IMG/VR virus record: IMGVR_UViG_3300022719_000026
Location: 1-48,786 of that record
Length of the DNA stretch: 48,786 nt
Strand: one strand, 5' to 3'
Source: a virus
Lineage: Duplodnaviria; Caudoviricetes
Each line of letters opens with the position of its first letter. The first letter of the stretch is position 1. This document shows positions 1,803 through 47,056 of the stretch, in pieces. A program made the translations under genes and the position numbers. The notes under the pieces were generated by a model, which saw nothing but the letters and a program-made list of their open reading frames with translations, was not told the DNA's origin and made no database searches.

Positions 1803-2159
1803 ATGGCGGTCATCAGCTACAAGGAGGAGTTCTCGACCATCCGCTTCGGCCACGGGGTCAAAGTGGTGAAGTGGGAGGAGATCACCGAGAACGACACGTG
1901 TCAGGTGTACGAGGACGGGGCCGGCAGCGACAAGTCCGTGCACGTCAACGGCAGCTTCGGTGGCGGAAGCGTCAGCCTGCTCGGGTCCAACGACGGATCG
2001 AACTTCCCCATCCTCAAGGACCTCGACGGGAGTGCGATCACCATGTCGAGCGAGGGACTCGTGACCGTGCGCGAGAACGTGCGGTACTACAAGCCCGGGA
2101 CTCCGGGAGGAACGGGCGTCAGCGTCAGCGTGTACATGCTGACCAAGGTGGTGCGGTAG
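1803..2159 (+). CDS. Hypothetical beta-rich virion protein
   Basis: RBS (aggagag) plus ATG; VNGSFGGGSVSLLGSNDGSNF resembles small phage beta-sandwich proteins. Confidence 0.6.
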   Translation: MAVISYKEEFSTIRFGHGVKVVKWEEITENDTCQVYEDGAGSDKSVHVNGSFGGGSVSLLGSNDGSNFPILKDLDGSAITMSSEGLVTVRENVRYYKPGTPGGTGVSVSVYMLTKVVR

Positions 2160-2192
2160 GTATCACGTGATACCCAACAGGAGGGCAGGCAG

Positions 2193-2606
2193 ATGGTGGG
2201 AGCACTGGTAGGCGCGGGACTCAAGCTGGGAACGACGCTCATCGAGCGGTTCTTCCCCGACCCGAAGCAGCAAGCCGAGGCCAAGCTCAAGCTGCTGGAG
2301 ATGGAGCAGCACGGAGAGCTGGCCGAGCTGGAGGCAGCCGCCGGCATCGTGCGCGCGGAGGCGGAGTCGGAGCACTGGCTCACCGCCAACTGGCGCCCGC
2401 TGACGATGCTGACGTTCGTCGTCATCATCGCCAACAACTACATCCTCTACCCGTACCTCAGCCTGTTCTGGACGGACGCGCCGTCGCTCGCCATCCCGCC
2501 CGACATGTGGGATCTGCTGAAGATCGGGCTCGGCGGCTACGTGGTCGGGCGCTCGGCGGAGAAGACGGTCAAGCTGTGGCGGGCGAAGGAGAGCGCAGAT
2601 GGCTGA
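2193..2606 (+). CDS. Holin, 3TM (GTA-type) family
   Basis: IERFFPDP..AEAKL, AEAESEHWLTANWRP, hydrophobic helix, WDLLKIGLGGYVVGRSAEK are typical of this family. Confidence 0.8.
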   Translation: MVGALVGAGLKLGTTLIERFFPDPKQQAEAKLKLLEMEQHGELAELEAAAGIVRAEAESEHWLTANWRPLTMLTFVVIIANNYILYPYLSLFWTDAPSLAIPPDMWDLLKIGLGGYVVGRSAEKTVKLWRAKESADG

Positions 2607-2817
2607 GCTAATCCTCGTGACCGTGTGCATCCTCGGGACGGTACCGCAGAGCTGCGCGACCGCTCGCTTTCGTGAGCCCGAGTTCTACATGAGCAAGGAG
2701 GCGTGCGCCGAAGCGGGCTACCGTCTCGCTCGGGCGATAGCTGTGCGCAGGCTCGAAGCGAAGATCGGAGACGAGTTCAGGTCAATAGCGACCTGTCGTA
2801 TGGTCAGTGGCGCTTGA
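2599..2817 (+). CDS. Small Cys-containing hypothetical protein with hydrophobic N-terminus
   Basis: RBS aaggag, overlaps holin end; last gene of the plus arm. Confidence 0.55.
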   Translation: MAELILVTVCILGTVPQSCATARFREPEFYMSKEACAEAGYRLARAIAVRRLEAKIGDEFRSIATCRMVSGA

Positions 2818-2916
2818 ATCTGTACGGCCGCAGGAGCTACGATCTCCTGACCCGGTAGGGTGGTAGCGGGTGCCCCGAGAAGTCTACGCCTGCCGCAGCC
2901 TCGCAAGCGTCCGGGG

Positions 2917-3390
2917 TCATTCTGAGGCTATCCTAACCCTGCCGTAGACGGCCAGCAGCGCCGCCTCGCAGCGCCCGTCGAGGAGGCCCATGCGCTCGCC
3001 CCACCACAGGTGGCGATAGCGGTCTCCGAAGTGCTCGACGCACTTGACGAGCGATGACTCCTTCTCCGCCGTCACCCCCATCCTCGGCTTCCACACGCTC
3101 GCCTGTACCTCCTCGTAGGGGACGCGAGCGTACTCCAGCATGCCGATGATGATGCCGTACTCGCGGAGGTAGTTGGCCGTCGAGGACACTCCCTGTGCCC
3201 TGGCGCCTCCCTTGCGCATCGGCTGCGCCCGCTCGATCCAGACGCGCGCTTCAGCCGTGCAGGCGATCCGCTCGACGGCTTCTCCAAGAGAGGAGCGGTC
3301 GCCGGGCATGTCGATCACGTGCAGGACCTCTCCGCCCAGGAAGGCGAGGGCGCCGGACTTGCCGGGGTCGATGCCGACGCAGACGGCCAC
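2917..3390 (-). CDS. RuvC-like Holliday junction resolvase
   Basis: VGIDPGKSGA, VWIE and DGRCEAALLA RNase H-fold acidic motifs. Confidence 0.8.
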   Translation of the reverse strand: MAVCVGIDPGKSGALAFLGGEVLHVIDMPGDRSSLGEAVERIACTAEARVWIERAQPMRKGGARAQGVSSTANYLREYGIIIGMLEYARVPYEEVQASVWKPRMGVTAEKESSLVKCVEHFGDRYRHLWWGERMGLLDGRCEAALLAVYGRVRIASE

Positions 3391-3941
3391 TACGCTACCC
3401 CCAGCTCGTTACCCCAGGAGTCCCAGCCTCGCGCGCGCTCGCGAGCGAACAGCTCGATGCGCGATAGGTCTCCCATGAGGGCGACGATCCTGTCGCGAAC
3501 TACGGGAGGCTTCGCCGAGTGCCTGCCCGCGCTCGCCTCGACTACTTGGTGCACGCTCGCGCTCACTCGCGAGGGCCTGCCTCTGGCACCCAGGAGGCAG
3601 AACTCCGTGTTCGAGCGCGTCCACTGACCCATGCCCCACAGCAGAGACCCACTTGGATCGTTGCGCTTCACCCACACGAACGCGACCGTGCGGTAGATGA
3701 AGCCCCACTCCCTCATGACCCACAGGGCCTCCTGCACTTTCGGCCAAGTGGCCCACATGAACAGGGCGCAGCTGTCGCTCGCTATGCGCCCGACCGGGAG
3801 GGCGGCGATCTCCTCGTCGGTCATGAGGTCGTACTTGTGGAACGCGCCGCGCTCGCCCGCGCTGGCCTTGTCTCGGTACGTCCACGCGGGATCCGCGTAG
3901 ACGATCTCGTAGCGCTTGCGCGTGCTGTAGATGTTGATCAC
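3390..3941 (-). CDS. MT-A70 family adenine methyltransferase
   Basis: IVYADPAW (DPPW-like), ALFMWAT, WGF.Y....FVWVK, HSAKP, RIELFAR, GWDSWGNE. Confidence 0.85.
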   Translation of the reverse strand: MINIYSTRKRYEIVYADPAWTYRDKASAGERGAFHKYDLMTDEEIAALPVGRIASDSCALFMWATWPKVQEALWVMREWGFIYRTVAFVWVKRNDPSGSLLWGMGQWTRSNTEFCLLGARGRPSRVSASVHQVVEASAGRHSAKPPVVRDRIVALMGDLSRIELFARERARGWDSWGNELGVA

Positions 3942-4123
3942 TCGCTCTCCTTCTTCGCGATCGTCACCAGCACGTAGTCGCCGGTCTCTTGGTCGAGGAA
4001 CCCCTCGACAACGCGCCTCCCGTTGTGGTCGCTGCCGATGTCTGCCTTGCGGAACGTGTCACGGTCCACTACGTCGGCGCTGTATTTCGGCCCGGTGTCC
4101 TTCTTCTTTCTGAACATCGCCAT
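3938..4123 (-). CDS. Hypothetical protein (61 aa)
   Basis: Fills the gap between the polymerase and MTase genes, with coupled stop/start. Confidence 0.55.
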   Translation of the reverse strand: MAMFRKKKDTGPKYSADVVDRDTFRKADIGSDHNGRRVVEGFLDQETGDYVLVTIAKKESE

Positions 4124-4131
4124 TGGTTACC

Positions 4132-6153
4132 TCACTTGCGATACCTGTCGCCCGTCCACACGTCGGCGTCGATGGGCCACTCGGCCCACCATGGCTCGGG
4201 TTCCAGCATGAGTTCCCTGTACTCCCCCACGCTCCCGAAGCCGACGGGAACCTCGCTCACCGCCTCGTCGTACACGGAGAGTATCACGTGATACCCACTG
4301 CGGTCGATGCGAAGCAGAGCCGGCATCAGCACCTCTCTGGCGTGCGCCTGCGTCACCAGCCCGCACAGTCGACCACCGTACCCGCTGATGCGGCGCCACT
4401 GCCCCTCCTTCATGCTCATGTACGTCAACTGGGGGCGTGGTACGCAGTCGCACTCTCCAGTAGCGCACTCGACCTTCGTGTCCGGGTCGTGCCAGTGCGG
4501 CATGCTGATGCGCATCTGCGGGTCCCATAGCCACAGGCGCTTGCTGCTCAACAGTCGGATGCTCAGCCAGTTCTCGACCATTCGGAACTCGATCGGACCG
4601 ACCTCGGTGTCCCTCCCCGTGGTGACGCAGCGAGCAGCCGCATGCTCAAGGTCGTACCAGAACGAGACGATGCGCGGGTGCTTCTCGCGCCACGCTCGGC
4701 AGTAAGCTATCACCTCCTCGTCCGAGTGGTCGCTGCTCGCTTTCGGGTCCTGCGTGCGCCACGCTCCGAGCGCACCCCCGTACCCGAACGCCAACTCCCC
4801 TTGCTTGCCCGCCTGCCGCTGCTTCGGGAACTTGTCCTTGAAGGCGCTTTTGTCGGCGCGGGCCAGTATCAGCGCTTCCTCACCCAGCCCGAACATCTCG
4901 TACGCCATCAGCTCGTAGATAGGCTCCTTGTGCCTGAAGGCTTCGATCTTCCAGTCTTCCTCCGCGAGGCAGGCGAGTATGACGGCCTCGATCGAGGTAT
5001 AGTCTCCCGCGTATATCTGACGCCTTGGCTCAGCGCAGATGTGGTGGCGCACGGCTTTCGCTACGGCGTCCATCGCGTCCCCGTACATGCAGTCGAGGAA
5101 CGCGGGACTCCTGTGCGAGATGTCGCGCACGAGCTGCTCGGGAGGCACGTCCTCCATGCTGCGCTTGAGGTTGAGGGGCTGGAATCCGGTGCCTGTCGCT
5201 CGCCCGCTGTTCGCCCCGTGGTAGCGCGTCTGGTATCTGGCCCGCCCGTCGCGCGCGCGATTGCGCAACATGGCAACGAGCTTCTTCGTGCTGGCCTTGT
5301 TGTACTGACGTCGCAGCTCAAGCGCTCTGTAAGCCTCGCCCTCCGGCGTGAAGTCGTGCAGGCCGGCGAGCAACTCCTCGATGTAGTCTCCCTGTAGGCT
5401 CTCGACCGGACACCCTCGCTCGCGAAGCCACGCGCTGACCTTGGCGTGCTGAAGCGGGCCGAGGCCGGTTATCTCGCGGAACTCACGCTCCAGCTCTCCT
5501 GCCCTCTGCTTGACCACTGCGATTGAGTCGCCGATGCTGCCTGCATCGAGGTACAACCCTCGCAGGTTGATGCGCTGGTCGAGGAGGAAGACGGCCAGCT
5601 CTTGCTCGGGTAGGTCCCCGAGGAAGTCAGAGACTGTCTCCTCCAGCAGCACGTCGCGCTTGCAGTAGTCGACGAATTTCTGATGGTCCTCCTCGGGTAT
5701 CTCTGCGCGCGACGTCTTGAGGTACAGCTTCGAGTACCGGCTGATGAGGCGCCCGCCCTCGGGATCCTTGCCCTCCATGCCGAGGGCTCGGCAGCACTTA
5801 TCGAGGGCTTGCGGCAGCGAGTAGTAGGCCGCGACCGCCATTGTGTCTCGCCACTGCTCGTCTCGGGGGAGCGGCCAGTCGTGCCGTGGGCCGAGCACGT
5901 TCTCCCACAGGGAGCGCTCGAAGCTGACGTTCCACGCCTCGATGGCGTGGCCCTCGTCGAGCGCCTCGAACAGGTCCTCGGGAGGTGGGCAGCCTGCTAT
6001 GCCGTCGACCTCGGGCCACCACTCTCGGATGGGCTCGTCGTCGATGGCGTAACAGGCACAGAGGATCTCCGTGGTCGGGTGCTCGGAGTAGACCCACGAG
6101 CCAACCTGGGGCAGGTTGGCGTAGCTTCGAGTCTCAAGGTCGAGCGTGATCAT
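4132..6153 (-). CDS. polA: DNA polymerase family A (APSE/BPP-1 type) with 3'-5' exonuclease
   Basis: ExoI DLET, ExoII WNVSFE, ExoIII YCKRD; motif A DYTSIE, motif B RQAGKQGELAFGYG, motif C SVYDE. Confidence 0.92.
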   Translation of the reverse strand: MITLDLETRSYANLPQVGSWVYSEHPTTEILCACYAIDDEPIREWWPEVDGIAGCPPPEDLFEALDEGHAIEAWNVSFERSLWENVLGPRHDWPLPRDEQWRDTMAVAAYYSLPQALDKCCRALGMEGKDPEGGRLISRYSKLYLKTSRAEIPEEDHQKFVDYCKRDVLLEETVSDFLGDLPEQELAVFLLDQRINLRGLYLDAGSIGDSIAVVKQRAGELEREFREITGLGPLQHAKVSAWLRERGCPVESLQGDYIEELLAGLHDFTPEGEAYRALELRRQYNKASTKKLVAMLRNRARDGRARYQTRYHGANSGRATGTGFQPLNLKRSMEDVPPEQLVRDISHRSPAFLDCMYGDAMDAVAKAVRHHICAEPRRQIYAGDYTSIEAVILACLAEEDWKIEAFRHKEPIYELMAYEMFGLGEEALILARADKSAFKDKFPKQRQAGKQGELAFGYGGALGAWRTQDPKASSDHSDEEVIAYCRAWREKHPRIVSFWYDLEHAAARCVTTGRDTEVGPIEFRMVENWLSIRLLSSKRLWLWDPQMRISMPHWHDPDTKVECATGECDCVPRPQLTYMSMKEGQWRRISGYGGRLCGLVTQAHAREVLMPALLRIDRSGYHVILSVYDEAVSEVPVGFGSVGEYRELMLEPEPWWAEWPIDADVWTGDRYRK

Positions 6154-6163
6154 CAGGTGCAGC

Positions 6164-6241
6164 CTAAAAGGCGCTGCACAACGCGACGAGGACGTACGCG
6201 CAGATCACGATCCCGATCGCGATGAAGATCCACTCCAGCAT
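6164..6241 (-). CDS. 25-aa single-TM peptide (MLEWIFIAIGIVICAYVLVALCSAF)
   Basis: Translated by hand; fills the gap between 6246..6914 and polA; entirely hydrophobic. Confidence 0.4.
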   Translation of the reverse strand: MLEWIFIAIGIVICAYVLVALCSAF

Positions 6242-6245
6242 GACG

Positions 6246-6914
6246 TCACCCCACGTCGGCCGGATACAACGTGGAGAAGCCGTCGTCGTCTACCTTCTCG
6301 GGGGTCATCGGCTCGCCGTCCGTCGTGCCGACCTCGCGCGGCTGGTTGCGAGCGAACAGGTCGGTCAGGCGCTTGGCCTCGGTGACCAGATCGACCAGCT
6401 CGATCTCGGTGAGAGGGCTGCGCTCCCGTGCGGCCATGAGGAAACGGATGGCTCGGTTGAACGCGTGCTTGCGGCGCGCGCGCAGCTCGTCTTCCGCCTG
6501 CTTGCGTATGTGTTGGTCGCGAGCGTGTTCCATCAGCCCTTCCTGAGTGCCGCCCTCCCACACCCAGCACATGCGAGCGCCGGAGATGTGCGTGTTGCTG
6601 AATGGAGCCGGCATGTCTATCCCGCTCTCGCGGGCTAGGTTGCGCGCCGCGTTGTACAGCGCTCCGAACCCTCGTTGCTCCGCGTCGCTCTCGCTCGGCA
6701 GCTTGCCTCGTCGCACCATGTCGCGCGCCGTCTCACACAGGTGGGGCGACGACGAGGACCTCGTGCTCGACGGGTATGACGCCCCTTCACCTTGCGAGAC
6801 AATCTTCAGGTCGATGTCTCCGCCGTGGTTGAGAGCGTTCAGCTCAGCATTGCTCACGGTGACGACGAGCGTCAACTGACCGGGAGCTGTAGGCTCTACT
6901 TTCACTAGTCTCAT
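6246..6914 (-). CDS. Hypothetical protein (222 aa)
   Basis: RBS aggagg plus ATG, just downstream of a palindrome copy. Confidence 0.65.
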   Translation of the reverse strand: MRLVKVEPTAPGQLTLVVTVSNAELNALNHGGDIDLKIVSQGEGASYPSSTRSSSSPHLCETARDMVRRGKLPSESDAEQRGFGALYNAARNLARESGIDMPAPFSNTHISGARMCWVWEGGTQEGLMEHARDQHIRKQAEDELRARRKHAFNRAIRFLMAARERSPLTEIELVDLVTEAKRLTDLFARNQPREVGTTDGEPMTPEKVDDDGFSTLYPADVG

Positions 6915-6958
6915 GCCTGCCTCCTGTCGTCGGGTATCACGTGATACCCAGTTGGTCG

Positions 6959-6978
6959 GGGGAGGCTAGTGCCTCCCC
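6959..6978 (-). terminator. Hairpin after the SSB gene
   Basis: ggggaggc-tagt-gcctcccc; no clear U-tract. Confidence 0.4.
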
Positions 6979-7006
6979 GTACCTACCAGCGGACCGAACA
7001 CGCTCG

Positions 7007-7636
7007 CTACCGAGTGCGACGCCGGTTCCTGCGCTTCTCGCCGCCCTCGCGACCCACCGGCTTGAACAACGTGCTGCGGTCGGCCGCCCGGACCAGCCGC
7101 TCGCCGTCGCGCGTCTTCTGGAAGGCGGCGAGGTACAGCTTGATGCCCGGGTTCCCCTCGTCCGTCTCGTAGAAGCCGACGTTGACGCCGACGATGCCGT
7201 AGCAGCCCGGGTACACCTCGCTCTGCCGTGCGGGAAGGATGCGCTCGGCGTCCGGATCGTACACCTGCACGCCGCCGGCCGCGTCCAGCCCGTCGCCGTT
7301 GTAGAGCGTGCTGGCCCGGATGACGGTCATGCCCTTGTAGGCGTCGCCGTCCTTCCCCTTCTTCTCGCGCTTCGCCGCGAGCTTGTTGCCGCTGAGCAGG
7401 GGCAGCACGAGGTCCTCGTCGTCGCCGGTGCCCTCGCCCCACTTGCGATCGGCGAGGTCGAGGAGGAAGTCCTCCAGGACGCCCACCTCCTCGTTGTCCT
7501 CGGGGATAGCGACCTCGACCTTGTACGCCGGGGTGGCCCGATCGTTGTAGGCGTCCTTCACGAACAGGTTGTGATTGATCACCCGGGCCTCGGGCAGGGT
7601 GAATGCGTCGAGCTTCAGGTCGTCCTTCTCGGCCAT
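7007..7636 (-). CDS. DUF2815-like ssDNA-binding protein
   Basis: RBS gaggag plus ATG at 7636; EVYPGCYG..VN...Y...GNPGI..YL..FQK.RDGERL motif; follows DUF2800. Confidence 0.8.
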   Translation of the reverse strand: MAEKDDLKLDAFTLPEARVINHNLFVKDAYNDRATPAYKVEVAIPEDNEEVGVLEDFLLDLADRKWGEGTGDDEDLVLPLLSGNKLAAKREKKGKDGDAYKGMTVIRASTLYNGDGLDAAGGVQVYDPDAERILPARQSEVYPGCYGIVGVNVGFYETDEGNPGIKLYLAAFQKTRDGERLVRAADRSTLFKPVGREGGEKRRNRRRTR

Positions 7637-7647
7637 TGCGTTGCTCC

Positions 7648-8877
7648 TCACTTGACTACGGGCTTGAACAGGGACTTGGCGTCCCGCTTGATCTCCCGTC
7701 GTGGGTCGCCCTCGACCACGATGGTCGTACCGCCCTCGGGCTTGAACGCCCATCGGGCGGTGAACTCCGTACCTCCGGGAAGGGTGTCGATCTGCGCCGG
7801 GCTCTTGAGCACCGGCGTGGTGTACGCCAGCTTCTCGCCGAACTTCTTGACGGCGGCCTTGTCCGCCCCGTCCTTGAACTCGCGGTTCGTGCGCGACTTC
7901 ACCAGCTTCACACCGGGCACCTTGTGCCCGTTGCTTTCGAGGGCGTGCGCCGTCTTGAGCGCACCCTTGAGCACGATCTTGTGGATCTCGTTCAGCTGGA
8001 TGATACGCCCCAGCTGCTCGGGGGTCAGCGCCTCCGCCCCCTTACCCTTGTTGTCGATGACTTCGTTCGCCATGAGCAACAGTTCCTCCAACTCGGCCAT
8101 GTCCCGCATGAGAGCCGGGCACTGCGCCAGCCGCGCGGGGCAGAACCGGCAGTGCTCGCCCGACTGAGTATCACGTGATACCTCCGCCCGCTCCATCGCT
8201 GGTAGCAGCACGTCGCCCAGCCAAGCGTCGAGGTCTTCGACGCTCATCTCCTCGAATCGGTGTGCGCCTTCTGGGTGCCATCCCCTCGGCTGGTAGATAT
8301 GGAGCCGCACGCGATCGACGTCGTCCCACAGCTCGTGCTCCTCTAGTACGCCGCAGCCGTAGTAGCGAAGCTGGGGGTTGTCTGTGGCGTCGACCATGAT
8401 GCCGGCCCCGTGCTTGTAGTCCCACACGTCGAGCACGTGGCAGCTGAGGAGGGGATCGTAACTGACGACCCAGTAGTCGGCGCGCCCGTAGTACAGCCGG
8501 TGCAGACTTGGACAGTGAAAGTCCTCCTCGATGGCGTATTTAGCGTGCGTGCCGAAGCCCCACTCCCCGATGACGCGAACGAACCCGTCGACGCAATCGG
8601 CCATCTCCTTGTCGACGAACAGTTCGTCACCATTCGGCAGGGTGTAACCCTCTCCCGGCTCGTCTCCCCGCTTGATGAGCGTCCACGGCTCCTCACCCGT
8701 GCGCAGGCAGTACTCCATCAGCGCGTGAGCCGCCGTGCCCTGCGCCGCGTACTCGCTCTCCGGGTCCTCGATCCCCTCAGAGAGTTGGACCGATCCGGGG
8801 CACACCATCCAGCGGTGTGCCCCGGAGGCCCCGAGTGGCGAGTGCTCCGGCAGTCCTTCCATACTCGCCGCGCCCAT
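7648..8877 (-). CDS. DUF2800 Cas4-like PD-(D/E)xK nuclease
   Basis: HS.LGASGAHRW..CPGS, GTAAH, GRAD, VWDYKHG, NPQLRYY, HIYQPR, GEHCRFCPA. Confidence 0.88.
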   Translation of the reverse strand: MGAASMEGLPEHSPLGASGAHRWMVCPGSVQLSEGIEDPESEYAAQGTAAHALMEYCLRTGEEPWTLIKRGDEPGEGYTLPNGDELFVDKEMADCVDGFVRVIGEWGFGTHAKYAIEEDFHCPSLHRLYYGRADYWVVSYDPLLSCHVLDVWDYKHGAGIMVDATDNPQLRYYGCGVLEEHELWDDVDRVRLHIYQPRGWHPEGAHRFEEMSVEDLDAWLGDVLLPAMERAEVSRDTQSGEHCRFCPARLAQCPALMRDMAELEELLLMANEVIDNKGKGAEALTPEQLGRIIQLNEIHKIVLKGALKTAHALESNGHKVPGVKLVKSRTNREFKDGADKAAVKKFGEKLAYTTPVLKSPAQIDTLPGGTEFTARWAFKPEGGTTIVVEGDPRREIKRDAKSLFKPVVK

Positions 8878-8878
8878 G

Positions 8879-9379
8879 TCAGTCGTCCTCCTGCATGTTG
8901 AAGTTCAGCTCGTCGATGAACTCCTCCCGCTTCTCGGCGGGGATGTCCGCGATCTTGCCGGACTCGGAGTAGTCGGCCACGATCTCGCGGATCACCGACT
9001 CGTCGAGGACCTCGGCCGCCCTGCTCGCCGCCTTCGACACGTCCTCCTTCGACGGCCCGCTCGGCTCGTCGGCCGACTTCGAGCGCCGACGCCGACCCGA
9101 GGGCTTGGCCTTCTCCTCCACCTTCTCCTCCACCTTCTCCTCCACCTTCTCCTCCACCTTCTCCTCGGACTTCGCCTTTCCGCCGCGCCTGCGACGGCCG
9201 CCCGAGGGCTTCTCCTCGGGGGAGTCGATGCCGGAGCCGGAGGTCTGACCCGCCGCCTCCAGGGTCATGCTGAGCATGCCGAGCACGTCGGTCAGCTCCA
9301 ACTTGGAGGGGCTCTCGAGCGTCACGTCCACGCGCGTGCCCTCTCCACACGGCTCGACGCTGATTCTGGTCACCTTCAT
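8879..9379 (-). CDS. Acidic hypothetical protein with EEKV tandem repeats
   Basis: RBS agaggag plus ATG at 9379; 12-bp tandem repeat at about 9110-9165. Confidence 0.7.
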   Translation of the reverse strand: MKVTRISVEPCGEGTRVDVTLESPSKLELTDVLGMLSMTLEAAGQTSGSGIDSPEEKPSGGRRRRGGKAKSEEKVEEKVEEKVEEKVEEKAKPSGRRRRSKSADEPSGPSKEDVSKAASRAAEVLDESVIREIVADYSESGKIADIPAEKREEFIDELNFNMQEDD

Positions 9380-9402
9380 CTTCACTTCTCCTCTGTTGGG
9401 TA

Positions 9403-9738
9403 TCACGTGATACCGTTGTCCAGCTCGTACTGTCGACGCCACTGTCGAGTGACGGCGAACAGGTCCCAGTAGTAGAGCACACGCCTGAGCGGATCCTGCT
9501 CGCGCAGGTTGTAGAACACGCCAGCTACCAGGTAGCCTTCCTCGTTCGCCAGCCGCAGGTACCCCTTCGGCGCGCTCTGGTCCGCGAACGTCACAGCCTC
9601 CTCTATGCTACGCGGGTGGCAGAGAACCGTCGAGCCCTCCCCCTCCCTGTGTATCTGAGGCATCCAGCCCTGCGCCAGCGCCCACCCAACTAGATGCTGA
9701 AATGCGCACTCCACGTGATCGAATGCGTCAGTCTGCAT
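9403..9738 (-). CDS. Hypothetical protein; stop codon supplied by the palindrome
   Basis: Ends ...DNGIT* inside the copy at 9399-9414. Confidence 0.55.
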   Translation of the reverse strand: MQTDAFDHVECAFQHLVGWALAQGWMPQIHREGEGSTVLCHPRSIEEAVTFADQSAPKGYLRLANEEGYLVAGVFYNLREQDPLRRVLYYWDLFAVTRQWRRQYELDNGIT

Positions 9739-9928
9739 CTACCCGCCCCAGCGACCCGCTCATTGCGTCCGGCAAGCGTCGGGCGACCATCTCCAGCCAC
9801 AGATTCGCCGCCTCCCGAACGTCAGCCGGCGCATCGTCCGGTATCTTCATCGAGAGCGTGTATCTGAAGCGAACAGGAATCCCGCAGAACAGAGCAATAA
9901 CATCCTCCATCGTTGTCACCAGTACCAT
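9728..9928 (-). CDS. Hypothetical protein (66 aa)
   Basis: RBS aggagg; contiguous gene packing. Confidence 0.5.
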   Translation of the reverse strand: MVLVTTMEDVIALFCGIPVRFRYTLSMKIPDDAPADVREAANLWLEMVARRLPDAMSGSLGRVDAD

Positions 9929-9931
9929 GCC

Positions 9932-11455
9932 TCACCTCCTAGCGTGCGCGTCGAGCGCCGCGTGTATGTTCCTGTCCTTCCAGACCGCAGTGCCGATCAC
10001 CCGCTCGTGCAGCGTCCCCGGCACCACCGGCACGTGGCCCAGCACGTACTCGCCCTCCTGTCCTATGCGATGCAGGCGGTCGAGGAGCTGATCGTTCTTT
10101 CCCGGCACCCAGTAGAACTCGGCCAGCACGGCGTCCTGCGCCGCAGTCAGGGTCCACCCCTCGCCAATCGTGGCGAGCTGACCGAGGATGATTCGACACC
10201 CGGGGTCCTGCTGGAACTTGTCGACCGCCTCTTGTTTTGCCCGCGGCGAGGTGCCGCCGTCCATGTACACGAGCCCGTACCCTGACAGGCGTTCGCGTAG
10301 GTACTGAAGCACGCTCAGCCCCGTCTTCGCTACGCCCTCACCGTCGAGCGTGTTCCGGTGCCACGCTGATAGCAGTAGCTTGTGCACCCCCTCCTTGAGC
10401 AGCTCCTCTACGTAGTCGGCCACCATCGGGGCGCACGCCTCCCCGAGTTGGCGCATGGCAGTGCTGATGGCGCCGTCCACCGGCACGCTGCGGTCGAAGG
10501 CGTCGGGGTCCAGCTCCCACAGGCGCTCGGCCTCCTTCCACCCTCGACTCTCCAGCGCTCTCCTCACGGCCGGCGTTGTCTCCAGGGGGACGAGGTGCCA
10601 TCGCTTCGGGGGCAGCTGCTGCAGCACGTCCTCCTTCAGCCGGCGCACCATCACCCGGGAGCGCAGGCGCCACTGGAGGTCCTCCATGTTGACCGGCACG
10701 TTGCGCACGGAGTTTGAGAAGTGAACTCGGCTCTCGTAGTGCGGCTCGCAGGGCATGCCGTACCTGTCCTTCGTCACCAGCACTGGCCCCCTGACGACGC
10801 CCTCGCCTTCTTCGTAGTAGTAGTCTCGGAAGGTATCGAGGCTCATGCGATCGATGGCGTCCCAGTCCATGAGGCGCACGGCGTTGTAGCACTCGATAGG
10901 CTGGTTCGGGAGGATAGTGCCGGAGAGCAGCGTGAAGCGGTCCGACACGCACGGGAGCATGTCTGGCGCGCAGATCGCACGGGTGCGCTTGTTCCCTTTC
11001 GGGTCCTTGAGGGCATGCGCCTCGTCCAGCACTACGTGATCCCATCGGGCGTCGAGTATGGCGTCCATGATCCCATCGTTGCGCAAGAGGTCGTAGCTGA
11101 TCACCACGAAGTCGTGCTCCAGCGACACCCCGTCCTTGCTCTTGAGCACGGGGTAGACCGTAGCGCCCTCGGTCGTGGACCACATCTTGATCTCTCTGGC
11201 CCAGTTGAGTCGGAGCGAGGCCGGGCAAACGACAAGCGTGCGCTCGGCCCCGATGGCGTTCCCGTAGAGGATGGACTCCGCCGTCTTGCCGAGCCCCGGC
11301 GCGTCTCCGATGAGGCAGTGGCGTCGAGAGATCCGGTACTCGACCGCCGCCTGCTGGTACGGAGAGGGCCGATGCGGACCCCACTCGGGCCACGGCGCCT
11401 CGTACCACACCGGCTCGACCGCGCGGCTGGCAGCGTAGGAGTCGGCGTCGCTCAC
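9932..11455 (-). CDS. SNF2-family (SF2) helicase/translocase
   Basis: GDAPGLGKT, LVVCPASL, DEAH, LSGT, GEGWTLT, QLLDRLHRIGQ. Confidence 0.9.
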   Translation of the reverse strand: MSDADSYAASRAVEPVWYEAPWPEWGPHRPSPYQQAAVEYRISRRHCLIGDAPGLGKTAESILYGNAIGAERTLVVCPASLRLNWAREIKMWSTTEGATVYPVLKSKDGVSLEHDFVVISYDLLRNDGIMDAILDARWDHVVLDEAHALKDPKGNKRTRAICAPDMLPCVSDRFTLLSGTILPNQPIECYNAVRLMDWDAIDRMSLDTFRDYYYEEGEGVVRGPVLVTKDRYGMPCEPHYESRVHFSNSVRNVPVNMEDLQWRLRSRVMVRRLKEDVLQQLPPKRWHLVPLETTPAVRRALESRGWKEAERLWELDPDAFDRSVPVDGAISTAMRQLGEACAPMVADYVEELLKEGVHKLLLSAWHRNTLDGEGVAKTGLSVLQYLRERLSGYGLVYMDGGTSPRAKQEAVDKFQQDPGCRIILGQLATIGEGWTLTAAQDAVLAEFYWVPGKNDQLLDRLHRIGQEGEYVLGHVPVVPGTLHERVIGTAVWKDRNIHAALDAHARR

Positions 11456-11742
11456 TGTTGAGGTTCTTCCCGGTCGTACTCCTCACCCGGTCTCGCGTAG
11501 TCGCTCGGGAGCATGCCGTCGTCCTCGGGAAGGTCGTCGTCCACGAAGTCCTCCAGAGGATAGCCGTCGCCGGGCTCGAATCCACGGGTATCACGTGATA
11601 CCTTCGACACCTTTGAGTTCGCCGGGAACTGCTTCGGCTGGCACTCCGGGCACCCATCGAGGTCGTGCCGGTTGCAGTACCAGCAGAAGCCCTGGGCCGG
11701 CCCGCAGCTCGGGCATCCCGGATCGCCGCACATGCAGGGCAC
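11452..11742 (-). CDS. Small Cys-rich (putative Zn-binding) protein with acidic tail
   Basis: CMC..GCPSC, CWYC, CPEC; contains the palindrome in frame (VSRDT). Confidence 0.55.
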   Translation of the reverse strand: MPCMCGDPGCPSCGPAQGFCWYCNRHDLDGCPECQPKQFPANSKVSKVSRDTRGFEPGDGYPLEDFVDDDLPEDDGMLPSDYARPGEEYDREEPQQ

Positions 11743-11743
11743 G

Positions 11744-11920
11744 TCAGTACCTCCAGTCGAGGCAGCGCCCCGGCTCGGGACCGAGCGCCTGGGACGGCGT
11801 GTACCAGATCTCGCCTATCGCCTCGCACGAGTGCGCGGCCATCGGCTCGTCCGTGTACGCGCACCCCGTGAGTACCAGCGCCAGCGTCAGCACCAGCATC
11901 GTGCCTGCCATCGTCCTCAT
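11744..11920 (-). CDS. Small putative lipoprotein (58 aa)
   Basis: RBS ggagg plus ATG at 11920; MRTMAGTMLVLTLALVLTG-C signal with LTGC lipobox. Confidence 0.6.
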   Translation of the reverse strand: MRTMAGTMLVLTLALVLTGCAYTDEPMAAHSCEAIGEIWYTPSQALGPEPGRCLDWRY

Positions 11921-11946
11921 CTCACACCTCCGCCTGCCGTCGGCCG

Positions 11947-12366
11947 CTACCAGATCCTCAGCGCCAGCTCGGTGACCGCCGCTCCCCAGGCTGCCGCGCC
12001 TAGGCTGACGCACGCCAGCTGCGCGTAGCGCACGAAGCCGAAGATCCACAGAGGGCGTACGTATGCCGACTGCGGGTCCTCGACGCGCGTGACCACGTGG
12101 GTCCCCTCCAGCACCCGGAAGCCAACGAGCCCTGCCTCCGAGAACCGTATCTGGTCACCCACCCTGCACCCGTGATCGCTCGTTACGGTCACCCTGCTCT
12201 CGCGCCACACGTCGTCGGTGAACACCGCCACGAACGCGCACGCCCACGAGAGCAGCACGGCCAGCGCACCAATCTCGCTGTTGTACTTCGTCAGCACGAG
12301 CAGCGAGCCCGCATTGAGGAAGTTGCCGGCCATGGTGGCGACCAGCTGGTTGTACGTCACGCTCAC
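11947..12366 (-). CDS. Hypothetical membrane protein
   Basis: RBS aggagg; several hydrophobic segments. Confidence 0.55.
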   Translation of the reverse strand: MSVTYNQLVATMAGNFLNAGSLLVLTKYNSEIGALAVLLSWACAFVAVFTDDVWRESRVTVTSDHGCRVGDQIRFSEAGLVGFRVLEGTHVVTRVEDPQSAYVRPLWIFGFVRYAQLACVSLGAAAWGAAVTELALRIW

Positions 12367-12376
12367 GCCGCACCTC

Positions 12377-12595
12377 CTAGCTGTCGAGCTGCTGAGAGAA
12401 CTCCCCGCAGCGCCACTTACAGTTGGGGTAGAACGACAGCTTCTGGATCTGCGGTGGTGCCCCGACCACCGGCCCGGGCACGATCTGCTGCGTGGCCGTC
12501 GGGGGCGCTCTCCTGCACTCCCAGTTGTCCCCGTCGACTACCGCTCGATGACGGCAGCCCTCGCACGTCGGCCAGCTACTCGCCTGCTCGTCCAC
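12377..12595 (-). CDS. Hypothetical Cys-motif protein
   Basis: CEGC, ECRRAPP, CGEF; RBS aaggagg. Confidence 0.55.
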   Translation of the reverse strand: MDEQASSWPTCEGCRHRAVVDGDNWECRRAPPTATQQIVPGPVVGAPPQIQKLSFYPNCKWRCGEFSQQLDS

Positions 12596-12809
12596 GCCTC
12601 ACCTCCTTCGCTCGCTGGTTGTCGGGACCGGCGCGCAGCGTGTGCCTCTGCCCGGTCGCCTCCGCGTGCTGGTTGCGCACCACCTTGGCCGCTCGCTTCG
12701 AGTCGAACCAGATTGGCTCGCCGTCCTCGGAGCGCACCAGCTCCTCGGGCAGCTCGTCCGTGGCCACCCGCACGATTCCGTACAGCCTGAGCCCCTTTCT
12801 CGTCTTCAC
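12576..12809 (-). CDS. Hypothetical protein (77 aa)
   Basis: Coupled to neighbouring genes. Confidence 0.5.
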   Translation of the reverse strand: MKTRKGLRLYGIVRVATDELPEELVRSEDGEPIWFDSKRAAKVVRNQHAEATGQRHTLRAGPDNQRAKEVRRGRAGE

Positions 12810-13120
12810 CGTCCGCCCCTCGCTCGCTTGACTTTCGCTCGCAGCTGAGCACCCTGCCTCCCGCCGTGCGATCGCACCATCCTCTCGCGCTTGCGATTGC
12901 GGCGCTGGTTGCGGGGACGCTGAGGCGGGCCGTAGTTGTGCGTAGCCGCGTACCCTCCGGTAGCGAACCTGCCTCCCATGGGAAGCGAGTCGTCGCTCAG
13001 GTCCTGCCTGACACCGGCGTCCGAGGGAGCGCGCTTCTTCTGAAACCCGAGCAGCGCTAGCAGCGCTCTGAAGATGTGCTGAAGCAGCGCTAGCAGCGCT
13101 CTGAAGATGTGCTGAAGCAT
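12806..13120 (-). CDS. Basic hypothetical protein with a 33-bp internal duplication
   Basis: RBS ggagg; LQHIFRALLA appears twice, from exact repeat 13050-13082/13083-13115. Confidence 0.55.
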   Translation of the reverse strand: MLQHIFRALLALLQHIFRALLALLGFQKKRAPSDAGVRQDLSDDSLPMGGRFATGGYAATHNYGPPQRPRNQRRNRKRERMVRSHGGRQGAQLRAKVKRARGGR

Positions 13121-13168
13121 CGCCGGTTCCTCCAGCTCAAGGTATCACGTGATACCCTGCGAGAAAGT

Positions 13169-13208
13169 GGGGGAGAGGGCAAGGTGTGGAGTGCCTGCCC
13201 TCTCCCCC
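13169..13208 (-). terminator. Stem-loop downstream of 13242..14162
   Basis: gggggagagggca ... tgccctctccccc, 13-bp stem. Confidence 0.55.
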
Positions 13209-13241
13209 GGTCCGCCCGGTGCCGAGCTACGTGGGCGGTTG

Positions 13242-14162
13242 CTACTCGTCGTACACGAGGCGGGCGCCGACCTGCTCGGCCACCCACTCCGCGAACTCGA
13301 TGCGCGACTTCGCCCGCAGACGCTTGAACCCGGAGCGGAGGCGATCCTGCCCCTTGAGCTTGGAGTCCTCGGCCTCCTCGTTCTCGTCCGAGCCGGCGAT
13401 GCCGTACATCTCCGCCTGCTGCCGGAGCAGCTCCTCGCGCGCGTCCGGCTCCATGTCGTCGAGCGCCATCCGCACCTTGGTCGGGTCGGCCGCCGGCTCG
13501 CCGCTGGACTTCTGCTCCTTCTTCGCCCGGTGCTTCGCCTGCGTGGCGGCGTGGCGCTCGCGCTGGTCCTCCAGGAGCTTCTGGCCGGCGCCGGGCTCCT
13601 CGCGCTCGGCGACGCCGATGCGGAGCAGCTTCTTGATGCTCTGCTGCCCGAGCCGCTCCGGCTCCTCGCCCTCGCGCTTCGGAGGGAAGTGGAGGTTCTC
13701 GGCGGCCCAGTCGTAGAACTTGACGCCGGCCGTCTTCGCGTGCTCCTGCGCCGTCGCGATCTCGATGGCGACGGCGAGCCGGTGGTCGACAGCCTTGCCC
13801 TCGGCCCGGTCGAGGGCGACGAGGCGGTGGTTGATCTTCTGCCGGTCCTTCTCCAGCTCGGACTCGGCCTTCTCCCGCGCCCGCTTCGCCTTGGCCTCCG
13901 CCGCCTCCTTCTCCTTCTTCTTGACCTCGTCGGCCGCCGCCTTGCGCGCCGCCTTCTCGGCCTCCCTGGCCTCACGGGCGAGGCGCTGGGCCTCGGTCTC
14001 CCCCTTCCTCGCTGCGGTCGTCTTCGTCGTCGGCTTCTTCTTGCGCGTGGTCTTCTTCACCGTGGCGTCCTTCGCCTGCGCATCCTTCTTCTTGCGCGTG
14101 GTCTTCTTCGTCCGGCGCCGGGTGCGCCGGGTGCTGTCGCTGGCCTGCATCTGCTCGTTCAT
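13242..14162 (-). CDS. Putative DNA-binding protein: Lys-rich histone H1-like N-terminus plus DUF3102-like core
   Basis: KKTTRKKK repeats; AIEIATAQEHAKTAGVKFYDWAAENL...GQQSIKKLLRIG; paralog of 22881..23483. Confidence 0.6.
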   Translation of the reverse strand: MNEQMQASDSTRRTRRRTKKTTRKKKDAQAKDATVKKTTRKKKPTTKTTAARKGETEAQRLAREAREAEKAARKAAADEVKKKEKEAAEAKAKRAREKAESELEKDRQKINHRLVALDRAEGKAVDHRLAVAIEIATAQEHAKTAGVKFYDWAAENLHFPPKREGEEPERLGQQSIKKLLRIGVAEREEPGAGQKLLEDQRERHAATQAKHRAKKEQKSSGEPAADPTKVRMALDDMEPDAREELLRQQAEMYGIAGSDENEEAEDSKLKGQDRLRSGFKRLRAKSRIEFAEWVAEQVGARLVYDE

Positions 14163-14419: not shown

Positions 14420-14517
14420 CAGTCAATCCCCGCCCCGCTCGTCGCAGATCTGTAGCCAGATGCGCTCAGGGCCTTCGTGTTTTGTCTTGTCCATCTCACT
14501 CCTCACTGGAGGCGCGT

Positions 14518-17751: not shown

Positions 17752-17796
17752 TCGTGCGCTCCAGTTACTAAGTTGCTATCACGTGATAGCGCAAGC

Positions 17797-37700: not shown

Positions 37701-38166
37701 GTACGACATCGTGATGGCTGACAGGCACCACGTCACCCACGTGGCGAACCTCATGCGAGAGGCGGATGCCGAGGAGCTATGGGCTACGTACGGGAGAGAC
37801 GCGAGCGTGCACAAGGTGCTGAGCACGTGCTACAGGGTATCACGTGATACCACCTACGCGGGGTTGGCGGACGGCGAGGCCATCTGCGTGTTCGGCGTCC
37901 GACCCCCGTCCCTACTTGGCGCAGTGGCCCAGCCGTGGATGGTAGGGACGGACGGCGTGAGGACGCACTCCCGAGCGTTCCTTCGCTTCAGCAGGCGCGT
38001 GGTGCGGGTCCTGTCGAGAGAGTTTCCTCACATGCGTAACTGGGTTGACGAGCGCAACAGCGACGCGATTCGCTGGTTACAGTGGCTCGGCTTTCAGGTA
38101 TACTCTCCAGAGCCCTACGGGGCCGAGAGGCTCCCGTTCTGCATGTTCGAGTTGAGGAGAGACTGA
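37693..38166 (+). CDS. T7 gp13-like / GNAT-like internal virion-associated protein
   Basis: MREADAEEL, NWVDERN..AIRWLQWLGF; position; palindrome in frame. Confidence 0.7.
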   Translation: MSEYDIVMADRHHVTHVANLMREADAEELWATYGRDASVHKVLSTCYRVSRDTTYAGLADGEAICVFGVRPPSLLGAVAQPWMVGTDGVRTHSRAFLRFSRRVVRVLSREFPHMRNWVDERNSDAIRWLQWLGFQVYSPEPYGAERLPFCMFELRRD

Positions 38167-41011: not shown

Positions 41012-44000
41012 GTGCCCTTCATCTCGGATCCCGACGAGCGCCGGCGCGGGCTGCTGCGCGACCTCACCGCGCTCCCGCCCGTGGTCGAGACTCCGCGCGC
41101 TCCGAGACGCAACTCCGCCGTGCCCGTGCTGGAGGTATCACGTGATACCAATCCGGACGAGGAGGCGAGGAAGCGAAGGACGGCGGAGGCGGCGGGCGTC
41201 CCTGCCGAGGCGGCGGAGTCCGCGCCCGAGGACGTAGAGGCCGCCGCGAGGCGCAAGGCGTTCCTGAGCGACCTCGACGAAGCTACCGCTACCACGCGCT
41301 TCCTCACTAACCCGAAGAACGCGCGGGTCGCGCACGACTCTGTCAGGGAGCTGAGCTTCATCGAGGGGCTGGCGAACAGCCTCGCGCGAGGCATCCTCGG
41401 CATCCAGCAGGGCGTGAGGCAGGCGCAGGCGGAGAGCGAGTACGAGGACGTTCTCGATGTGGGGCGCTCGTACCTGGAGATCCTGGAGGACGCCGGGGAT
41501 CACGAGCTGGACAGAGGCCCCCTGGCTCACATGGAGGCCCTGTACCGCTGGGCTACCTCTCGCGTCTCGGAGCGAGAGACACAGGTGGGCCAGTTCGTGC
41601 GCGCGCAGCGAAGCGTGGGGGAGCTGGTGGAGCAGACGGCGGCTACCCCCATGTCCGGTCGCGCTCGCAAGTGGAAGGAGAGCGTCGAGGAGGCTGACAC
41701 CGTCCTCGACAAGGTGGTGGCCGTCGTCAGCGATCCGGTCGGGATGGGCGCCTTCTCGGCGGAGGTCGGCGCGGAGTTCATTCCCCAGTTGATCGCGGCA
41801 GGTGCGGTGACGGCGGCGACGCGGAGTCCTGCGGCAGGCGCTGGCGCAATGGGGCTTGCTTCAGGGGCGACGGAGCGTTACCGCTCCCCGGCGGAGTTCC
41901 TGAGCGACGCTGGCGTGGACTCGACCGATCCCGAGGCCGTGCGCGAGCTGCTTCGTGACGAGCGTACCTTCGTCGAGGCGCAGGAGTACGGTGCCACGCG
42001 CGGGAAGATCATCGGAATACTGGACGCGCTCTCGGGCGGCATCGCCGGGAAGGCACTCGCCAACAACCCGCTCGGCGACCTCGCGCTCCAGACTATCGTG
42101 CAGATGGCGATGGGAGGTGGGGGAGAGGCGCTCGCGCAGAAGGCCACGCGGGGTGAGATCGACATCGACGAGGTCATCTTCGAGGCCGTCGGCGAGTTCG
42201 CAACGACGCCCGTCGAGGTGGTGGCCGTCGGCGGTAGGATGCTCGGCAAGCGGGCGAGCACAGTAGCTCGCGCCAAGGACGCGCTCGATGCTTCGCGGGC
42301 AGAGTCGACCGTCGAGCAGACGGACGCGCTCGCCAAGGCGGTGCAGGACTCTCCCGTGACCGAGCGCAGCCCCGAGACGGCAGCCGACCACGTGTCGACC
42401 GTATTGGCGGACGCCGGGGTCGAGGAGGTGTTCGTTCCCTCGGACGCGCTGCTGGAGGTGGAGGACGCCGACCAGCTGGTGAGCGACCTCGGCGTGGCTG
42501 ACCAGATGGAGGACGCTGAAGCCTACGGCGGGGACGTACGCGTGGGCGCGCGCGAGTTCGCTCAGCACGTGCTGGCAAATCCTGAGCGGTATCAGGCACT
42601 CCGCGAGCACGTGCGGCTCGACGCCGAGGGGCTGACGCTGACCGAGGCGGGCGAAGTAACGGAGGCCGATGCCGTCGAGGAGGGGACGGAGGCGATCGCG
42701 GCAGCGGCCGAGGAGGTATCACGTGATACCTCGGAGAGCGCGCATACGATTCAAGCGGACGACGAGTCGGTCGGACTGGCGGAGCACGAGGCCGGCGTCG
42801 GTCTTATGTTCCGCAGCGCAGAGGAGGCCGGATTCACTGAGACGCAGTACGCCAGCTACGTCGAGGCGGAAATGCGCACGCACACGGAGGCCGCCCGCAG
42901 GAAGGAGCGCAGGCGCCTGAAGCGTGAGGAGCGCCGCCTGTCCGACGAGTACAAGGCGGCGCGAGAGGAGCTTCGGCCCGAGGTCGAGGAGTCCGTCGCC
43001 CAGCAGCCGCTCTACAACGCGCTCAACGGTATCGGGCGCGAGCGCTTCGACCGCGCCCGCGTGGTGGAGCTGCTCGGTGGAAACGAGGAGGCGCTGGCCC
43101 GGCTTCCGAAGCAGAGCGGGCGCGCCATCTACACGCAGAAGGGCCAGAGCGGCATCGGCCCTGACATGCACGCTGACGTGTACGGATTCTCCGGCGGTGA
43201 CACTCTGCTCTACTCCATGCTCGACCGTCCCTCTCAGCAGGAGGCCGTCGAGGCGGAGCTGACCCGGCGCGTCGAGGAGCGACACCCCACGCTCGTCAGC
43301 GAGCGCGGTGAGGTGCGCGAGGCGATGGAGGCGCTGCACGAGGGGGACCAGCACTCCCAGGTCCTCGCCTTCGAGCTTGCCCGCCTTCGGCAGATGCGCG
43401 GTCAGAAGCGGATCAGCCGCTCGCTCATCCGGGCCAGAGCGCGGCGCGTGCTCTCGAACCGGCGCGTGGGGGAGATCCGTCCGCCCGCGCTTGAGACCCT
43501 ACAGCGACGCGAGGGAAGACGCGCGGCGAAGGCTCTGCGCGCGGGAGACCTTGAGGCTGCTGCCCGCCACAAGCTGAATCAGGCGGTGGCCCACGAGATG
43601 ACTCGCGAGGCGTACAAGGTCAGGGACGAGCTGGCGAAGGGTAGGCAGCGGTTCCGCCGGTACCTGAAGCGCGGGCGCGAGCGCGGGAAGCAGGGCGGGC
43701 TGCCCATCGAGTTCCGCGAGCGGATCCAGGACCTGCTCGGCGCGTTCCAGTTCGGGCGCCGGAAGGGCAGCTCTCGGAGGCTACAGCGCGCGCTCGATCA
43801 GCCGGACGTACCCAGGCGCCCCGGAGAGGAGCTTGAGGCGTGGACCGCCAGGAAGAAGGAGGAGGAGGGAATCGTGATCCCGCTCGGGCCGACGGTGACG
43901 GAGGCCGACGGCTCGACGCACTGGGAGAACCTTACGCTGCGCCAGTGGCGCGAGCTGCACAACGCAGTGCGCGACATAGAGACGGCCGGGCGCGAGGCGA

Positions 44001-46174: not shown

Positions 46175-46176
46175 GG

Positions 46177-46185
46177 TGTTAGAAT
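46177..46185 (+). promoter_or_regulatory. Possible extended -10 promoter (TGTTAGAAT) for the lysis/tail-appendage genes
   Basis: Intergenic TGnTAGAAT, 5 nt upstream of the palindrome at 46191. Confidence 0.4.
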
Positions 46186-46222
46186 CGACGGGTATCACGT
46201 GATACCCCACAAGGAGTCGCGA

Positions 46223-46486
46223 GTGCCAACCAGCGAGCAACAGAGGCAGCTTGACACCGAGGCGCTCGCGATGGCGTCGAAGGCGCTCGCTCTGATCGAG
46301 AAGCACGAGCACGACTGCCAGATAGACAGAGCTGAAGCGTTGGCGGACCGAAAGGACATGCGGAGTTCAGTGCGCAGGATGCACGAGCGTATAGACAAGC
46401 TGATGGTGGTCACGATGATGACTCTCGCGAGCGCGATCGGCGGGTTACTCATCCTCGTGCTGTCGTGGATCGGACCGGGAGGCTAG
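46223..46486 (+). CDS. Small membrane protein (coiled coil plus C-terminal TM), holin/XhlA-like
   Basis: RBS aaggag plus GTG; C-terminal hydrophobic helix; precedes the lysozyme. Confidence 0.6.
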   Translation: MPTSEQQRQLDTEALAMASKALALIEKHEHDCQIDRAEALADRKDMRSSVRRMHERIDKLMVVTMMTLASAIGGLLILVLSWIGPGG

Positions 46487-46491
46487 CGAGG

Positions 46492-47028
46492 ATGACACGG
46501 CAGGTAAGCAAGACGCTGAAGGCGTACCTCGCTACGCGCGAGAGCGCGCGGCTAGACGTTCATGACGACGGGTTCGGGTTCGCGACGGTCGGCGTGGGCC
46601 ACAAGGTTCTCGACAGGGACAAGCTCAGGATCGGGGACACGATCACCACCGAGCGCATGTACCAGCTTCTCGACGAGGACCTGGAGTGGGCGTGCGAGGC
46701 GGTCGAGCGGTACGTGCGGGCTTACCTGTACCAGCGCGAGTTCGACGCGCTCGTGTGCTTCTGCTTCAACATCGGGCAGGCGGCATTCGCCGGCTCGACG
46801 CTGGTGAGGCGCCTGAACGAGCTGGCGGATACCCCGGGTCTCCGGAACCCGATGGAGCTGCGCGACAGAGTCGCCTGCACCATCGTGAGGGAGGAGCTGC
46901 CCCGCTGGAAGCGCGTCGGTAGCAACCCGGACGTGGTCGGCCTCTACAATCGGCGCATCGACACCGCGCAGATGTTCTGCGAGGGCGACTACAGCGTGGA
47001 CTGGAGCGGGTTGGAAGACCAGCGATAG
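46492..47028 (+). CDS. Endolysin, GH24 lysozyme
   Basis: E-x8-D-x5-T triad (RESARLDVHDDGFGFATVGVGH), FDALV.F.FNIG, GLYNRR. Confidence 0.88.
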   Translation: MTRQVSKTLKAYLATRESARLDVHDDGFGFATVGVGHKVLDRDKLRIGDTITTERMYQLLDEDLEWACEAVERYVRAYLYQREFDALVCFCFNIGQAAFAGSTLVRRLNELADTPGLRNPMELRDRVACTIVREELPRWKRVGSNPDVVGLYNRRIDTAQMFCEGDYSVDWSGLEDQR

Positions 47029-47056
47029 GTATCACGTGATACCCACGGAGACTGAC

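Follow-up and report, generated by a model that had tools for sequence, protein, structure and literature searches.

The phage genome in IMG/VR record IMGVR_UViG_3300022719_000026 is studded from one end to the other with copies of a parS-like palindrome, which raises the question of what reads such an array and what it does for the phage. The window, i.e., the whole stretch of DNA analysed here, is the entire record (48,786 bp, 65% GC, 100% complete, end overlap of 127 bp). Its structural genes are BPP-1/BcepC6B-like, as in a podovirus (capsid 59.5% to BcepC6B), and the other arm encodes a primase, an SNF2 helicase, a DUF2800 exonuclease, a single-stranded DNA-binding protein (SSB), and a family A polymerase. 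A close cultured phage is absent, the top-ranked GenBank match of the window helicase being at 33%, and a tRNA scan of the window found none. None of the ParA, ParB, integrase, and repressor families rose above noise among the 69 open reading frames (ORFs; Pfam, PHROGs), and the phage looks lytic, lysogeny genes not having been found.

The array is real, selected, and clade-wide. Judging from sequence, its palindromes are, with a probability that we place slightly above even, selected and evenly spread sites bound by a phage-encoded DUF3102-like protein, here called X, which would coat the chromosome as a scaffold and a self-mark.

Number, placement and spacing of the palindromes

The array consists of 30 palindromic 16-mers between positions 2159 and 47043, with starts at 2159, 4280, 6933, 8167, 9399, 11587, 13141, 14198, 15749, 16891, 17775, 19386, 19612, 20091, 20405, 20757, 21678, 22045, 22783, 24282, 25603, 27614, 29366, 31434, 33969, 37836, 41134, 42715, 46191, and 47028. 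A recount agreed with an earlier note on this DNA in finding 29 exact copies of TATCACGTGATA and one single-mismatch copy (TATCACATGATA at 22047), while shuffled genomes held a mean of 0.03 and a maximum of 1 copy; two-mismatch sites of TATCACGTGATA do not occur in the window, and all 29 occurrences of TCACGTGA there fall within the array. The complete 16-mer GGTATCACGTGATACC is present at only 20 of the 30 sites. Three neighbouring copies, starting at 17775, 19386, and 19612 (17775 to 19627), have the symmetric variant GCTATCACGTGATAGC, and the remaining sites are off at one outer base or, in one case, in the core. Relative to parS, the 14-bp core is changed at a single symmetric position. 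By the gene calls made for this analysis, 9 sites lie inside ORFs and 17 are intergenic, while 2 give a TGA stop and another 2 reach into a stop codon by a single base; the earlier figures of 10 in ORFs, 2 forming stops, and 18 intergenic were thus close.

The mean and largest gaps, previously put at about 1.6 and 3.9 kb, measured 1,622 bp and 3,867 bp (p 0.01 for the latter). Over-regularity of the spacing, which the earlier note had raised, was found: the gaps are more even than random (coefficient of variation 0.63, p 0.003), and over-regular spacing was likewise seen in 6 of the 8 relatives tested. A null model in which the 32 gene gaps supplied 21 sites and coding DNA the other 9 gave a p of 0.002. 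When the 21 junction sites were held fixed and the 9 in-gene sites were scattered, the observed evenness was matched in 0.2% of trials (p 0.002), and removal of the in-gene sites leaves a largest gap of 12.2 kb. Copies inside genes thus close what would otherwise be long gaps, a pattern suggesting that the array serves to cover the chromosome and not to control promoters.

Lineage-specific words in related phages

Scanning of a viral collection for the word (39 of 64 parts covered) yielded 143 loci, including 12 contigs with repeated matches (2-14 exact copies each). Ten of these 12 were compared with the window by tblastn and all ten share genes with it, the shared core genes having mostly 40-70% identity and the relatives a GC content of 45-65%; contig G012 has no gene in common with the window, and G011 was left out of the gene comparison. 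Arrays of the identical word are therefore present in 10 independent related contigs, by which an assembly or adapter artefact is ruled out. Other relatives have a symmetric word of their own, such as GGTCTCACGTGAGACC (24 perfect copies in G013) and GACATCACGTGATGTC (11 in G014), and further words of the clade are of the GGGATC-, GGTGTC-, GGAGTC-, and GGGTAC- types, as well as GGTGTGACGTCACACC. Altogether the clade holds at least 9 symmetric word variants, which vary mostly at the outer positions and nearly all of which keep the CAC core. In the majority of the 80 nearest capsid relatives no array was seen.

The sites inside genes are substitutions at shared alignment columns, where each phage has its own word. 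For the site in the DUF2800 exonuclease gene (8167 to 8182, encoding VSRDT), 9 of 14 homologues have a site at that column too, each with the variant of its own phage, and the change of word alters residues too (VSRDT to TSRDV). The site in an internal virion protein gene (37836 to 37851) recurs at its column in 7 of 12 homologues, including GACATC and GGTCTC variants, and that near the start of a Bbp19-like gene (29366 to 29381) in 5 of 9, whereas the two sites in the largest gene, encoding a 1720-amino-acid internal protein (41134 to 42730), each do so in 3 of 5. The orthologous positions and the joint switching argue for selection by a lineage-specific binder; some 10-25 sites switching together would be expected from a change in the specificity of one binder. 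The lineage variants bear out the proposal that specificity shifts through symmetric changes, and lend support to the earlier notion of a sequence-specific, probably dimeric protein acting along the whole phage chromosome. The possibility that the sites are inserted elements was rejected for the phage genes, the in-gene copies being substitutions.

Two further palindromes were encountered outside this clade. A distant helicase relative (L631) contains CGATCAATTGATCG in four copies within 7.7 kb, and the unrelated phage contig G012 has four TGTATCACGTGATACA-like sites within 300 bp in an operator-like arrangement (L260, 16391 to 16690).

The candidate binder X

X1, a protein of 306 amino acids encoded on the minus strand (13242 to 14162), lies between the genes for the primase and the SNF2 helicase, and is flanked by sites, one 36 bp before its start and one 86 bp beyond its stop. 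A second candidate binder, its paralogue X2 (200 amino acids, 22881 to 23483, minus strand), is 32% identical over 115 residues. X travels with a replication module (4132 to 17751, minus strand) comprising a Prim-Pol/AAA_25 primase-helicase, X1, the SNF2 helicase, the DUF2800 exonuclease, an Enc34-type SSB, and the family A DNA polymerase. X was present in 6 of 6 same-word relatives covering the X region and in two copies in G013; G014, with an array and no X match, is uninformative, its contig being without the X region. A profile search collected 787 representatives of the X family (at 50% identity), and an X core had zero matches in 50,697 GenBank phage records, which gives no sign of a homologous binder in Cluster O mycobacteriophages. 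Among loci fetched by the X protein, those of 33 of 49 distinct cores have a site of the family, and 13 of the 16 misses are on contigs of at most 3.1 kb. Sites cluster around X and often lie in the X gene just behind the core; across 151 X proteins, the peptide SRD, encoded by the site, was counted 29 times, 18 of them directly behind the core, whereas its permutations were counted 2-5 times.

To separate X from the replication module, 80 helicase loci were fetched, 16 close and 64 distant. Ten of the 16 close loci have both X and sites. Two (L563 and L573) have no X in the 10 kb upstream and no array, a further one (L564) is without an array and has an X that is short and degenerate, and the last three, of which one has an array, another two sites, and the third no site, do not extend over the X region. 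At the 64 distant loci there was no X at E <0.001 and no array of this family.

In its layout, X1 has a Lys/Ala-rich N-terminal tail, a DUF3102-like helical core (approximately residues 100-216) with a long basic helix at its end, and a small helical C-terminal part. Models of X are confident and all-helical (predicted local distance difference test scores of 84.5 and 90.7), with a long helix, an F..W helix, a helix that starts with QSYETVRKL in most members, and a long basic helix with N88-x3-N92-x3-R96. Basic regions of bZIP proteins bind CACGTG and GACGTC cores, and the N-x7-R spacing of the basic helix of X resembles such a region, a similarity that may serve as a lead. DUF3102 was the top match in Pfam for 6 of 49 X cores, at best with an E of 4e-7 (two bridging members), none of the cores matching a ParB family, and hhalign aligned X with DUF3102 at 57% (E 1e-4), or at 5-9% with other alignments. 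X shares with DUF3102 (PF11300) the succession of a helix, an F..W helix, and a predicted recognition helix, and bridging members (L554, 7305 to 8438; L556, 755 to 1111) match the Pfam model; X differs in adding the conserved basic helix, the Lys/Ala tail, and a C-terminal domain, and the window proteins fall below the Pfam threshold. Predicted models of X and a DUF3102 cluster superimpose with a TM (template modelling) score of 0.59, under the Atlas naming bar, and the best VIA Z for the X model, 6.9, is dominated by an N-terminal helical hairpin.

On the reading of X as the binder, X1, and perhaps X2 too, would bind the sites and coat the chromosome about every 1.6 kb (1-4 kb intervals). Binding would be as a dimer, by way of a predicted helix-turn-helix-like unit together with the basic helix that follows, while the Lys/Ala-rich tail and the C-terminal helices may compact or bridge the DNA. 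X is without the CTPase (cytidine triphosphatase) domain of ParB, so that sliding is not expected, which would explain why sites have to recur at such short distances (1-4 kb). What the coat is for is the most uncertain point of this reading: most probably, it would tell phage from host DNA during replication, for example by shielding it from, or directing, the neighbouring exonuclease and SNF2 helicase or host nucleases. A wider and more tentative version, which we think possible though rather doubtful, is that a widespread uncultured family uses a private self-recognition code, in which a DUF3102-like protein with a bZIP-like N-x7-R basic helix reads a lineage-specific G-box/C-box palindrome every 1-4 kb, marking self against the phage's own host-degrading nuclease, host defence, or co-infecting relatives.

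Several observations weigh against X as the binder. DNA binding by X would rest on a distant link to DUF3102: X1 and X2 have no Pfam match above the cut-off, X1 matches nothing in PHROGs or PDB, and fold searches gave nothing significant (no Foldseek match at E 0.001). Locus L550 encodes a full-length X with an altered predicted recognition helix and has no site in 12.9 kb, and over the 17.7 kb of the DUF3102-like bridge L554 no CACGTG array is present. Moreover, X and the array both largely follow the replication clade as a whole, a confounding that only 2-3 natural 'knock-outs' break. X was found in 0 of 7 near-complete records searched, a count confounded in that those gene-compared lack the replication module or share it only distantly, and 8 of the 49 core rows come from genomes originally found by motif. 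An enrichment of SRD would be expected for any disordered linker encoded in these genomes, covariation between X residues and words gave no clean signal, X1 is very divergent yet has the commonest word, and the X tree (84 columns) is poorly resolved.

Competing explanations, known systems and hosts

Another explanation, to which we assign a minor share of probability, is that X binds the sites as a global repressor or road-block in the manner of KorB or stoperators, for carrier-state silence or gene timing. It is favoured by the location of 21 of the 30 sites at gene junctions or stops, many of them 12-70 bp before a start, including the one ahead of X1, and by the setting of the X gene, which is flanked by those of the primase and the helicase and in several relatives diverges from the former, a position usual for a regulator; moreover, KorB is described in the available part of its report as silencing from distant operators (PMC11790492). 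The in-gene sites, however, fill gaps and do not mark promoters, no integrase or partition genes were found, and a strict sigma70-like scan, which is a weak test in DNA of 65% GC, gave 2 candidates, both more than 200 bp away from any site. The sites are, in addition, symmetric, whereas stoperators are oriented, according to the part of their description that was available (PMC4351075). That a conserved phage protein other than X reads the sites, i.e., the primase, the SNF2 helicase, the exonuclease (with the sites as a Chi-like signal), or a small terminase, is improbable: genes of all these types co-occur with the array in the same clade, but L563 retains polymerase, SSB, exonuclease, and helicase (42-59% identity) without X and with only three 3-mismatch relics in 21 kb, L573 is likewise, and perfect dyad symmetry is more in keeping with a dimer than with a Chi or pac signal, which would be polar.

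Recruitment of a host protein (ParB/SMC or another Rhodospirillales factor), with the variants reflecting host switches, receives similarly little credence. The 14-bp core is one symmetric position away from parS, and the 16-mer is enriched in Rhodospirillales: a scan of a species-genome collection (60 of 64 parts) found 120 perfect copies, of which 31 are in named members of the Rhodospirillales group, 19 in further Alphaproteobacteria, and 2 in other named alphaproteobacteria, and 151 genomes of the order, a sample centred on a genome picked because it has a perfect copy, contain 16 perfect sites in 14 genomes against approximately 0.13 by uniform chance. Set against this, 126 of the 151 genomes have zero matches within one mismatch, the word reaches 0-3 copies per candidate host genome, the phage words vary where host parS does not, and inspected host copies are often on acquired DNA, insertion sequences (IS), or a CRISPR (clustered regularly interspaced short palindromic repeats) spacer, or are coding coincidences. 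The four Rhodospirillales chromosomes examined for parS all have the canonical form (1-5 copies) elsewhere; with two mismatches allowed, they match the phage word at 1-3 places, and near matches do not abound, so that neither recruitment of host ParB nor a host iterated palindrome, both considered in the earlier note, was borne out. Nor did the private partition system that it had listed hold: with neither ParA nor ParB among the ORFs, and with sites dispersed and not clustered, the array is likely not a partition centromere. A passive host signature, a mobile mini-element, or an artefact has a negligible probability; some host copies do lie beside mobile or defence-like genes, but the phage has about 1 copy per 1.6 kb and hosts no more than a few per 4 Mb, in-gene copies are substitutions, and independent contigs have the array.

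The search for precedents found no description of a podovirus array of this kind in a literature coverage mostly short of subscription papers, and the single match to the 12-mer was in one unrelated paper; nothing pertinent turned up on phiC31 inverted repeats. The earlier remark that no such system was described in podoviruses has to be read alongside Cluster O mycobacteriophages, whose genomes have over 30 dyad repeats; arrays of palindromes spanning a phage genome have thus been known since 2015, though with neither binder nor function. The available part of the report lists 34 Cluster O dyad sites, assigns no function, and predicts a dimeric binder (PMC4351075). As here, the near-invariant 17-bp repeats number at least 30 genome-wide, lie between and inside genes, and are shared by relatives; they are described there as mostly away from promoters and absent from the host strains checked, and both phages are without integrase or parAB, with a word that is rare in the host (PMC4351075). 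The Cluster O repeats differ in having 7-bp arms and a 3-bp spacer, in belonging to a siphovirus of Mycobacterium, and in having no binder named in that part of the text (PMC4351075), whereas the present array has a parS-like word without spacer, a podovirus genome, concerted lineage variants, demonstrated over-regular spacing, and a named candidate binder family. The ParB-parS and Noc-NBS systems likewise have a 16-bp palindrome with a CACGTG-type centre and change specificity by symmetric swaps, the two kinds of site differing at positions 1 and 6, as far as the consulted portion of the source goes (PMC7383237); here, in contrast, there is no ParB CTPase domain or ParA, the sites are spread over the replicon, and mostly outer positions vary. 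KorB/OB of plasmid RK2 also combines an element-encoded protein with dispersed palindromic sites acting far from promoters, yet KorB is, in the available portion, a CTP-dependent ParB-family sliding clamp working with KorA, a domain that X is without (PMC11790492). Stoperators of Cluster A mycobacteriophages are many dispersed repressor sites in a phage genome too, but are presented in the available text as asymmetric, oriented with transcription, and belonging to temperate phages, unlike the perfect palindromes of this lytic-looking phage (PMC4351075).

The array is therefore of a known but unexplained kind, and what is new is a candidate protein, natural specificity variants, and natural losses, by virtue of which one binding experiment can test the idea. 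If X is indeed the binder, untested DUF3102-like domains would gain a first function, a lytic-looking phage would be seen to organise or mark its whole chromosome without ParB, and the protein-word pairs would constitute a natural orthogonal set of 16-bp protein-DNA pairs. The same limited literature coverage contained no functional study of DUF3102.

Candidate hosts are, by inference from the word, Rhodospirillales. With a relaxed pattern, 31 of 63 host matches are perfect palindromes (approximately 2 expected). All five inspected GGGATC copies represent one coding coincidence in a formaldehyde dehydrogenase gene, three of the four GGTGTC copies in G070 represent a single IS1595-like element that recurs there, and three Thalassospira copies are one orthologous start-codon site, while in two Thalassospira cases the site is on a segment absent from most congeners. 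Inspected copies are for the most part either coincidences or neighbours of acquired genes (Fic, NYN, Abi_2, TIR/HigBA, resolvase, prophage pieces), and others sit inside housekeeping genes; X was not found in 5 hosts with palindromes of the word family. A chromosome-organising system of Rhodospirillales was rejected, the copies being traced to coincidence, IS, a CRISPR spacer, and one orthologous site, although a residual enrichment remains. We read the host copies as a hint to host range with leakage from a mobile pool and not as a host system. The CRISPR spacer is in G070, where a Cas12f/TnpB-like gene stands beside a 16-repeat array (L460, 1987 to 4540) and one spacer holds the palindrome GGCGTCACGTGACGCC, which belongs to the family of phage words; the spacers had no match longer than 16 bp to the fetched phages.

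Some features of the window itself deserve mention. An AT-rich non-coding stretch between two sites (21700 to 22040) contains repeated AATCGTGCAA / TTGCACGATT in both orientations, the 10-mer of these repeats occurring in 8 copies genome-wide, and looks origin- or iteron-like. Tandem repeats at 23510 to 23620 and 24240 to 24400, in the long gap separating the two arms, comprise a 26-bp unit in three copies, repeated CCAACGCTTG, and a 39-bp duplication, and are possibly near the packaging start. A gene for an MT-A70 family adenine methyltransferase (3390 to 3941, minus strand) was not found in the relatives compared. Among the small early genes, one on the minus strand (19630 to 20073) has a weak, below-cut-off ArdA-like match (E 0.004) and another (20916 to 21365, minus strand) encodes a hexapeptide-repeat protein; this region, the densest in sites, is possibly an anti-defence region.

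In bacterial genomes, the word or a variant is also found where lysis or structural genes begin, or next to such genes (L287, 5001 to 5016; L474; L470) in a conserved phage-like cluster of Rhodospirillales (terminase, capsid, cell-wall hydrolase, holin), the holin of L474 having 51% identity with the window holin. In unrelated bacteria (L317, L319, L332, and L336), the 16-mer occupies promoter spacers upstream of small genes, resembling an autoregulatory operator.

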